From the NCBI GenBank assembly GCA_951406725.2, contig OX597819.1:682001-746000 (forward strand): a stretch of DNA of 64,000 nucleotides, in the 5' to 3' direction. Made by a program: the position numbers and the translations under genes. Every line of letters begins with the position of its first letter. The first letter of the stretch is position 1. The stretch is from Octopus vulgaris (lineage: Eukaryota). Below the pieces are notes generated by a model that was given only the letters and a program-made list of their open reading frames with translations, had not been told where the DNA came from and searched no databases. Positions 9,691-11,121 of this stretch are shown one piece after another.

Positions 9691-10300
9691 GTTATCGCCA
9701 TACTAATATGGCATTCTTATAATAAGAATAAAGCTGTCCGCTTATTAGCTCCATGAGGCCATCGCCTTAAGTTAGCTATTTGATACACAAACTGTATCCA
9801 TATAACCTTCGAACATATATGTGTTATATATATATATATATAAATATATATGTGTATATATATATATATATATATGTATATATATATATATATATATATA
9901 TAATATATATGTGTGTGTGTTATATATATATATATATATATATATATATATATATATATATATATATATATATATATATATATATATATATATATATATA
10001 TATATATATACATATATATATATAATTAATTAATAAGGGTGAGAGAATTAGATACTAATTTAATAGTATATCTATTCAACACCAAGTGGCCTAGTGCTCC
10101 GAGAAACCTGGATTATTATAATATTTTATAATATATTATAATATCTTTACAAAATAAATATAAGAGAGTGGTCACTATATGGCTCACTCTAGCACCAGTT
10201 AATCCAAAAGGTTTCAACCACAAAAATACATGTTTCCCATGAAAGTCAGTACGATTGTTAGCTCACACGGACAGGGCAAATAAAAAAATAACAAAAATAC

Positions 10301-10395
10301 AGATTATTTTGGGACAATTGTTTCAACTATTAATGAATTAAATGTAATTTTACTTACAAAAAATCCACTTGTAGCTCGTCAGCCAAGAACTATCT
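10301..10395 (-). ncRNA. Type I hammerhead ribozyme, copy 1
   Basis: Minus strand: TTGG-CTGACGA-GCTA...TAGTT-GAAAC-AATT-GTC-CCAAAA; base of stem II slightly altered. Confidence 0.75.
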
Positions 10396-10839
10396 GGATG
10401 AAATCCACTCAATCACACGCCAGATTTTACCATAACGATAAATACGCGTGTGGTTCAATTGATTACATCCGACGTTATAATTCAAATGCCCCAACTAACA
10501 GCGCGCCAAACTTCTTCACGGAAAACAAAGACTGCATTTAGAAATAAATGTAGCATAATTATAATTAATTAATAAGGGTGAGAAATTAGATACTAATTTA
10601 ATAGTATATCTCATTCAACACCAAGTGGCCTAGTGTTCCGAGAAACCTGGATTATTATAATATTTTATAATATATTATAATATTTTTACAAAATAAATAT
10701 AAGAGAGTGGTCACTATATGGCTCACTCTAGCACCAGTTAATCCAAAAAGGTTTCAACCACAAAAATACATGTTTCCCATGAAAGTCAGTACGATTGTTA
10801 GCTCACACGGACAGGGCAAATAAAAAATAACAAAAATAC

Positions 10840-10933
10840 AGATTATTTTGGGACAATTGTTTCGCTTATTAATGAATTAAATGTAATTTTACTTACAAAA
10901 AATCCACTTGTAGCTCGTCAGCCAAAACTATCT
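10840..10933 (-). ncRNA. Type I hammerhead ribozyme, copy 2
   Basis: Minus strand: AGATAGTTTTGG-CTGACGA-GCT...AGC-GAAAC-AATT-GTC-CCAAAATAATCT. Complete core, stem I TTTTGG/CCAAAA extended by AGAT/ATCT. Confidence 0.85.
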
Positions 10934-11032
10934 GGATGAAATTTGAATTATAACGTCGGATGTAATCAATTGAACCACACGCGTATTTATCGTTATGGTA
11001 AAATCTGGTGTGTGATTGAGTGGATTTCATCC

Positions 11033-11121
11033 AGATAGTTTTGGCTGACGAGCTACAGAGTGGATTTTTTTGTAAGTAAAATTACATTTAATTCATTAAT
11101 AGCGAAACAATTGTCACAAAA
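11033..11121 (+). ncRNA. Type I hammerhead ribozyme, copy 3 (inverted segment)
   Basis: CTGACGA 11045-51, GCTA/TAGC stem II, GAAAC 11104-08, AATT, GTC 11113-15. First stem I pair is a G.A mismatch. Confidence 0.75.

Follow-up and report, generated by a model that had tools for sequence, protein, structure and literature searches.

The window analyzed here, a stretch of 64,000 nucleotides of the Octopus vulgaris genome, carries a damaged insertion of a repeat with a non-coding unit of about 535 bp, a type I hammerhead motif, insertion into (TA)n and two fixed 3' ends. We consider it probable that the repeat is a Penelope-type family of non-autonomous retrozymes. Its copying is likely carried out in trans by a Penelope-like RT/GIY-YIG protein, and the Hydra clade of Penelope-like elements (PLEs) is the most likely source of that protein. 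The repeat is a new family within a known class of mobile element, and the ribozyme itself is unsurprising. The strongest evidence for Penelope-type mobilisation comes from three traits that the original prediction had missed: an inverted arm, a preference for (TA)n as target and 3' ends that are fixed at two sites.

Non-LTR retrozymes, their circular RNAs and their proposed mobilisation by PLEs have been described in PMC7229834, and retrozymes have been argued to be non-autonomous PLE derivatives with units of 51-972 bp (bioRxiv 10.64898/2026.07.22.740005). Here and below, statements on published systems concern parts of the papers cited. A literature search retrieved no description of this repeat family; Repbase, Dfam and the supplements of the retrozyme papers lay outside its scope. 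In the main text of the octopus repeat-annotation paper PMC13282606, the words 'hammerhead' and 'ribozyme' occur 0 times.

Anatomy of the insertion in the window

The features of the insertion and its surroundings, in window coordinates, are as follows:

8259..10023, no strand given: target-site microsatellite rich in (TA)n, bordering the 3' end of the element
10024..10562, minus strand (RNA sense): full unit 1, 539 bp here and about 535 bp in the family, found by self-BLAST and direct reading
10024, minus strand: 3' end (site A) of unit 1
10024..10150, minus strand: 'tail' between the two fixed 3' ends, 127 nt; site B is unit position 128 and site A position 1
10300..10396, minus strand: hammerhead motif 1, predicted cleavage 10313/10312
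10563..10942, minus strand: unit 2, 5'-truncated, unit positions 1-379
10839..10935, minus strand: hammerhead motif 2, predicted cleavage 10852/10851
10941..11121, plus strand: inverted arm, 181 bp, unit positions about 283-464
core from 11045, plus strand: hammerhead motif 3, in the inverted arm
11122..12682, minus strand: decayed LINE-type RT fragment, flanking and outside the element, 96% identical to 2847-4412
18502..19068: second version of the insertion, with site A and a partial unit on the minus strand (18502-18882) and an inverted arm on the plus strand (18881-19068)
35485..35646, minus strand: exon of unc-76/FEZ that precedes the insertion in the direction of the gene, PF07763

The insertion thus consists of a (TA)n-flanked end, 1.7 head-to-tail units (unit 2 is 97.4% identical to unit 1 by self-BLAST) and the inverted arm, which stops atypically at the LINE fragment and not at site B. 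The second version has no full unit and sits inside a local duplication (10560-13420 against 18499-21342, 97% identity by self-BLAST). Because of this duplication, the five hammerheads of the window represent two versions of one insertion and not five independent copies. The original prediction had derived a consensus from these five; all of them are present, but none is equal to the family consensus. Its unit length of 539 bp is correct for 10024-10562, while the unit of the family is about 4 bp shorter, and the window unit departs from the family consensus by 5 gap openings, compared with 0-1 in 116 of 139 full units. Some of the defects seen in the window may therefore be assembly errors. 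The two predicted cleavage positions are those originally given.

Other repeats are found in the window. Positions 1-2678 and 30276-32968 form a near-identical duplication beside an assembly gap (2679-2778); this duplication and that of 10560-13420 and 18499-21342 may reflect either recent duplication or misassembly. A degenerate AT-rich tandem repeat with periods of 64-185 bp occupies 6785-8018, and a near-perfect palindrome of 285 bp, 95% self-complementary, lies at 53707-53991. Transposase fragments on the minus strand at 25442-26368 are presumably of the Mariner type, judging from their motifs.

The host gene, unc-76/FEZ, runs on the minus strand. Matches to PF07763 on the contig (C6:717485-717646, 740302-740418, 759774-759905 and 658248-658490; the second is 58302-58418 of the window) place exons on either side of the insertion, one of them downstream and outside the window. 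A minus-strand transcript of the repeat would hence be in the unc-76 sense, as had been proposed.

The hammerhead motif

At the level of sequence, the repeat carries a real type I hammerhead motif, and this part of the original prediction is confirmed. The motif of the window, located in a non-coding tandem unit, has the core CUGACGA...GAAA, a stem III of sequence ACAAUUGU and a GUC triplet. The family conforms to the type I pattern (CUGANGA...GAAA...UH with three stems), while each window copy has a defect, and none of the five window ribozymes matches the family consensus. In motif 1 the closing pair of stem II is altered, and extra bases lie beside the core (next to GAAA) and in stem I. Motif 2 has a one-base bulge in stem II and an intact core. 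The hammerhead of the 18.8-kb copy shows a mismatch in stem II, and in both inverted-arm hammerheads the first pair of stem I is broken. Release of a monomer from the unc-76 intron appears doubtful, because both tandem ribozymes would be needed and both deviate from the consensus, that of unit 1 next to the core; the earlier proposal of a 539-nt monomer released from this locus was thus overstated. The window copy is a worn or damaged intronic passenger. It is probably a product of the retrotransposition process proposed below and no longer a good source.

Across the genome the motif is well preserved. A search with hammerhead models had been suggested as a check. In an Rfam scan, the 130 matches at E<=1 included no hammerhead, probably because the long stem II defeats the Rfam models. 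Exact matches to the ribozyme core with its stem-II base number at least 1,028 genome-wide, against 0 for a reversed-pattern control, so that chance does not account for the motif. The core is intact in 175 of 184 units of the young family, and the free position N7 is occupied by all four bases. Within the young family, none of 39 propagated variants fell at the 18 core positions, where about 1.2 were expected; this depletion is not significant.

Covariation was examined in 12 related motifs, chosen by core and stem III alone with the stems disregarded. Pairing is preserved in 45 of the 48 cells of stem I and in 43 of the 48 of stem II, compared with permuted means of 28.6 and 22.9. None of 20,000 permutations reached the observed pairing of either stem, a count that overstates independence because the 12 representatives are related. 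The first pair of stem I is G-C, A-U or C-G among these motifs, a compensatory change.

In folding predictions, the hammerhead lies 5.6 kcal/mol above the minimum free energy structure of the monomer, and the palindrome is able to form a duplex of -6.4 kcal/mol. These values agree with the dimer-dependent cleavage described for such motifs (PMC4209133). The circular monomer is predicted to fold at -151.7 kcal/mol, compared with -105.2 ± 5.3 kcal/mol in 60 shuffles (z -8.7). The repeat shares with the minimal PLE hammerheads of PMC4209133 a palindromic stem III, a predicted need for dimers and a G10.1-C11.1 pair. Unlike them, it has a full C3-G8 core, a stem I of 6+5 bp and a much longer stem II, and hence it is closer to the canonical type I form.

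Stem II, of about 51 nt with two internal loops, also sets the repeat apart from animal non-LTR retrozymes as they appear in the parts cited (PMC7229834; bioRxiv 10.64898/2026.07.22.740005). The original description of this stem as unusually long is overstated for this genome: a looser pattern finds 6,065 long-stem-II motifs with ACAAUUGU (control, 20), and the design is common to thousands of motifs including one in the pLTR of a coding Hydra-clade element. Versions with a short stem II gave 12 matches, none of them linked to an ORF. In other respects the repeat resembles animal non-LTR retrozymes: non-coding tandem units with a type I hammerhead each, a 2-bp stem III with a palindromic tetraloop, a low GC content (32%), a strongly self-paired circle (predicted in our case) and co-occurrence with PLEs. 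The 535-bp unit exceeds those of the invertebrate retrozymes tested in PMC7229834 (170-400 nt) and falls within the published range for animal retrozymes (bioRxiv 10.64898/2026.07.22.740005); the original remark on its length was overstated. The latter study detected in vitro cleavage for only 1 of 9 dimers of frog retrozymes, a point against the interpretation preferred here. Two further differences are that the circles and the cleavage of the repeat are predictions from sequence and that, beyond the core, it has no sequence homology to the pLTR of a coding element.

A young family at (TA)n sites

A genome search yielded 1,162 candidates, and the 40 that were scored gave units on many contigs, with a length near 535 bp and in most cases 97-99% identity. 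The family is young, with units 1.3% from the consensus, and its longest sense ORF has 19 codons. Exact counts over the whole genome, which are lower bounds like that of the cores, gave at least 1,578 head-to-tail junctions, 922 ends at site A (unit position 1) followed by ATAT and 483 ends at site B (position 128) followed by AT. The family thus occupies roughly a thousand TA-repeat sites, and its arrays reach 16 units. The unit is contained in contigs assembled from four independent public runs, and in three of the four the head-to-tail joint is bridged, which argues against an assembly artefact for the family; none of the runs is recorded as RNA, and such contigs cannot reveal ends, strand or level.

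Two older sister families, B and C, are likewise closed non-coding units, 73% and 63% identical to the young one, and have the same two ends. Further non-coding hammerhead families with a ACAAUUGU stem III were observed (L175:6900-7470, L173:2660-3330, L189:2969-3532, L266, L270), and one such family has a period of about 439 bp. A GC-rich motif, UUUGGCGCGC, lies just on the 5' side of the unit junction (about 10490-10510 of the window, minus strand) and is partly kept in sister family C. We take it to resemble an E2F site and assume that it could be an internal promoter.

Insertion ends pair one site A with one site B

The ends were mapped in 55 loci: the 38 best matches of the genome search (a set biased to full units), 2 loci beside ORFs and 15 from a list for contig C1. 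Copies end in (TA)n at the two fixed sites, 127 nt apart. One fixed 3' end with a variable 5' end was found in 18 of the 55 loci, of which 13 use site A and 5 use site B. The other 37 are inverted insertions, and in 36 of them an A end is combined with a B end, site A being trimmed by 7-10 nt in two; the window copy is the sole exception. Three additional inverted loci comprise two of the A+B type and one B+B (L279). Contig C1 has 78 exact ends at site A and 35 at site B, and when these form outward-facing pairs no more than 12 kb apart, the two sites are combined in 17 of 17 cases (p~5e-7 under independence). Coding PLEs of this genome mostly show the same pairing. From the insertion ends we infer that there is one RT start site per DNA strand.

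The signature of a non-autonomous Penelope-like element is therefore found in its several parts: fixed 3' ends, a tail on one side, 5' truncation, an inverted arm and a (TA)n target. According to PMC8557442, PLEs form partial tandems, with a copy inverted on the 5' side and a 30-40-bp tail at one end. Like the EN+ Hydra-clade PLEs of that paper, the repeat targets (TA)n, is truncated at its 5' side, forms partial tandems with an inverted 5' arm, and has a single-ended tail and a canonical hammerhead; it differs by having no ORF and by arrays of up to 16 units. Its 127-nt tail is longer than the published ones, while the Hydra-type families of this genome have tails of 71 and 117-121 nt. In vitro, the tail of a PLE is the stretch between two internal RT start sites, and both target strands are nicked and extended (PMC11167929). 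The PAc Poseidon element of Anolis studied there is similar to the repeat in that two internal start sites define the tail, the target is AT-rich and little sign exists of templates ending at the ribozyme site; PAc is, however, autonomous and its start sites are adjacent, whereas those of the repeat are 127 nt apart with one per arm. In the parts of the animal retrozyme papers cited above, (TA)n targets, two 3' ends and inverted arms are not mapped.

Altogether, the original suggestion of a non-autonomous Penelope element is upheld by the fixed ends, the (TA)n target, the A+B rule and the lack of an ORF in 55 loci, but homology to a pLTR is missing outside the core.

Candidate Penelope-like partners

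In none of the 55 loci was an RT/GIY-YIG ORF contiguous with the repeat. PLE fragments lie near 14 of the 55, each separated from the unit by (TA)n. Three apparent linkages were discarded: the intact Neptune-like ORFs in L093 and L094 are separate insertions 3-5 kb away, and the ORF upstream of a sister-family copy in L173 terminates with a ribozyme and a (TA)n tract that belong to it.

The candidate partner family has intact ORFs of 941-1,091 aa with RWK and DKT motifs and a CxCx5C linker, and no CCHH; an example of an intact one lies at G000:C4:96406525-96409464. Hydra motifs as given in PMC8557442 were read by eye in L336 and in the end motifs of L344 and L237. Some members of the candidate family are 98.7-99.9% identical, and its target is (TA)n; the hammerhead has a CUGAUGA core, a long stem II and a ACAAUUGU-type stem III, and the tail measures 117-121 nt. 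One copy (L345:2640-7412, G000:C12) contains a motif, a 941-aa ORF and a second motif, and in a decayed copy of the coding family, reached via the long-stem-II motifs, ORF, 3' UTR and motif follow without interruption. Neither Pfam, for the Hydra-clade candidate family, nor a PDB search with a Hydra-type ORF gave a match. The Hydra-clade ORFs of L336-L344/L345 contain long Asn-rich inserts, and some subfamilies have a stem III of sequence ACGAUUGU or ACGAUCGU.

Other young coding families are present. Three of them are Neptune-like (L109, L106/L112, L209/L214), (TA)n-targeted, with U3/A8-type cores and tails of 32-38 nt; one has repeats in its 3' region that we take to be CCAAT/CRE-like. A very young Hydra-type family (L237:1501-3651; L040) has a 717-aa frame, a hammerhead-like motif with a CCGAAGA core and a 71-nt tail. 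Scores of its copies are 100% identical over 343 aa.

In comparisons with five coding families, no significant pLTR homology to an autonomous PLE was detected outside the ribozyme core. The unit had no significant sequence in common with the Neptune-like P1, P2 and P4 or the Hydra-type P5 (best E 0.03); that best match, 64 nt at 72% with P1, was rejected as AT-rich and out of register. Against the Hydra pLTR, the local score was 44 and the shuffled mean 49. The 45 nt after the cleavage site exceeded shuffles in one of five pairings only, and 24 of 2,000 shuffles reach the value. What the unit has in common with the five coding families is limited to ribozyme design and tail length. Since significant homology outside the core is lacking, the Hydra-clade partner was picked on architecture alone, and we give it an even chance of being the mobilising one.

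A proposed mechanism and its template

The repeat arrays would be transcribed. Adjacent hammerheads likely pair via their palindromic stems III and excise monomers, and ligation probably turns these into circles. A dimer of the PLE protein would then nick both strands of a (TA)n target and start cDNA synthesis at two internal positions, site A for one cDNA and site B for the other. From there each cDNA would extend toward the 5' side of the RNA, over unit junctions, until it stops, whether the template is circular or a multimer left uncut. Finally, the two products would be linked head to head.

The template may be approached through the arrays themselves. Units differ by 0.41% within an insertion, by 0.38% between opposite arms and by 2.1% between insertions (191 units, 55 arrays), and one 12-unit insertion has zero substitution differences among its units. 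A cleaved linear monomer would truncate copies at the cleavage site, and few such copies are seen: genome-wide, 5' breakpoints flush with the site are 6 of 10 pattern matches (1 plain truncation, 5 inversion joints); a control site gave 2 of 2, and the 3' ends number at least 1,405. Six against two at a single control site is too weak to claim an enrichment. Hence, the template would be a circle or an uncut multimer, and cleaved linear monomers would serve rarely. Several long arrays (G000:C28:10732667-10739024, C3:179746911-179753715, C1:158285414-158294216) are mosaics of recurring unit variants, partly with period 2 or 4 and about 4 in the C28 array. These count against a single monomer circle, which cannot yield recurring variants. 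The unit order of the C28 mosaic is not repeated in 5 other loci that have two of its variants. On balance, we lean slightly toward a circular template.

Alternative explanations

A different account of the arrays keeps the PLE machinery and takes the uncut multimeric transcript as template, with template jumping or later recombination lengthening the arrays and the hammerhead as a near-neutral passenger. In vitro, PLE ribozyme activity is dispensable and unprocessed RNA is the main substrate (PMC11167929); mosaic, partly periodic arrays suit the copying or recombination of multi-unit blocks, and the scarcity of cleavage-site breakpoints suits this account as well as a circle. A passenger, however, would hardly retain its core and stem pairing across families only 63-73% identical, nor an intact core in nearly all units, and arrays of 12-16 units persist despite truncation in each round. 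Moreover, four other loci with the T400C-type variant set of C28 are short and lack its unit order, although the sample is small. We regard this account as unlikely, though it deserves serious consideration.

It could also be asked if the unit is a piece of something larger or a product of DNA-level processes. That it is the pLTR of an autonomous Penelope-like element, full-length copies of which fall outside the sample, seems quite improbable to us. The coding Hydra-clade family does have a pLTR hammerhead of like design (L345), and 55 of about 1,000 loci were examined in depth; the unit, however, runs into itself at all the junctions counted above and has no sense ORF longer than 19 codons, the neighboring PLE fragments all lie across (TA)n, 20 Hydra-family and 30 GIY-YIG loci contain no match except one adjacent repeat copy, and the two older sister families are closed units too. 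Spread as DNA, through unequal crossover or Helitron-like rolling circle, or an assembly artefact, draws on the gap and the 97-99% duplications of the window, on the excess of indels in the window unit and on mosaic arrays, which show some DNA-level turnover. It is hard to reconcile with many contigs, exact 3' ends, variable 5' ends, inversions, an A+B rule common to coding PLEs and a head-to-tail joint present in independent runs. For the family, this reading is strongly disfavoured, and we give it almost no weight.

Significance of the family

A Penelope-type non-autonomous retrozyme remains our preferred interpretation, and the family is useful in being young, numerous and cleanly structured. 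In the parts of the literature cited above, the retrozyme-Penelope link rests on co-occurrence and pLTR similarity; here, genomic ends show a retrozyme with the full Penelope insertion signature, in which each arm uses one start site almost without exception. Intact candidate enzymes in the same genome make it a system for testing the copying of circles and the PLE clade involved. A bolder and tentative proposal, which we hold to be possible but more probably wrong than right in its entirety, is that circular-RNA parasites form a long-lived lineage, with at least three generations that are 63-73% identical, and that a Hydra-clade Penelope protein copies them by virtue of their structure only, the protein dimer priming two cDNAs at two fixed sites 127 nt apart, one per strand, each rolling round the circle. 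If this were true, the roughly 1,000 young insertions would document rolling-circle reverse transcription in the genome, and an intact enzyme of the same genome, active until recently, would allow a direct test of the partnership between retrozyme and PLE.
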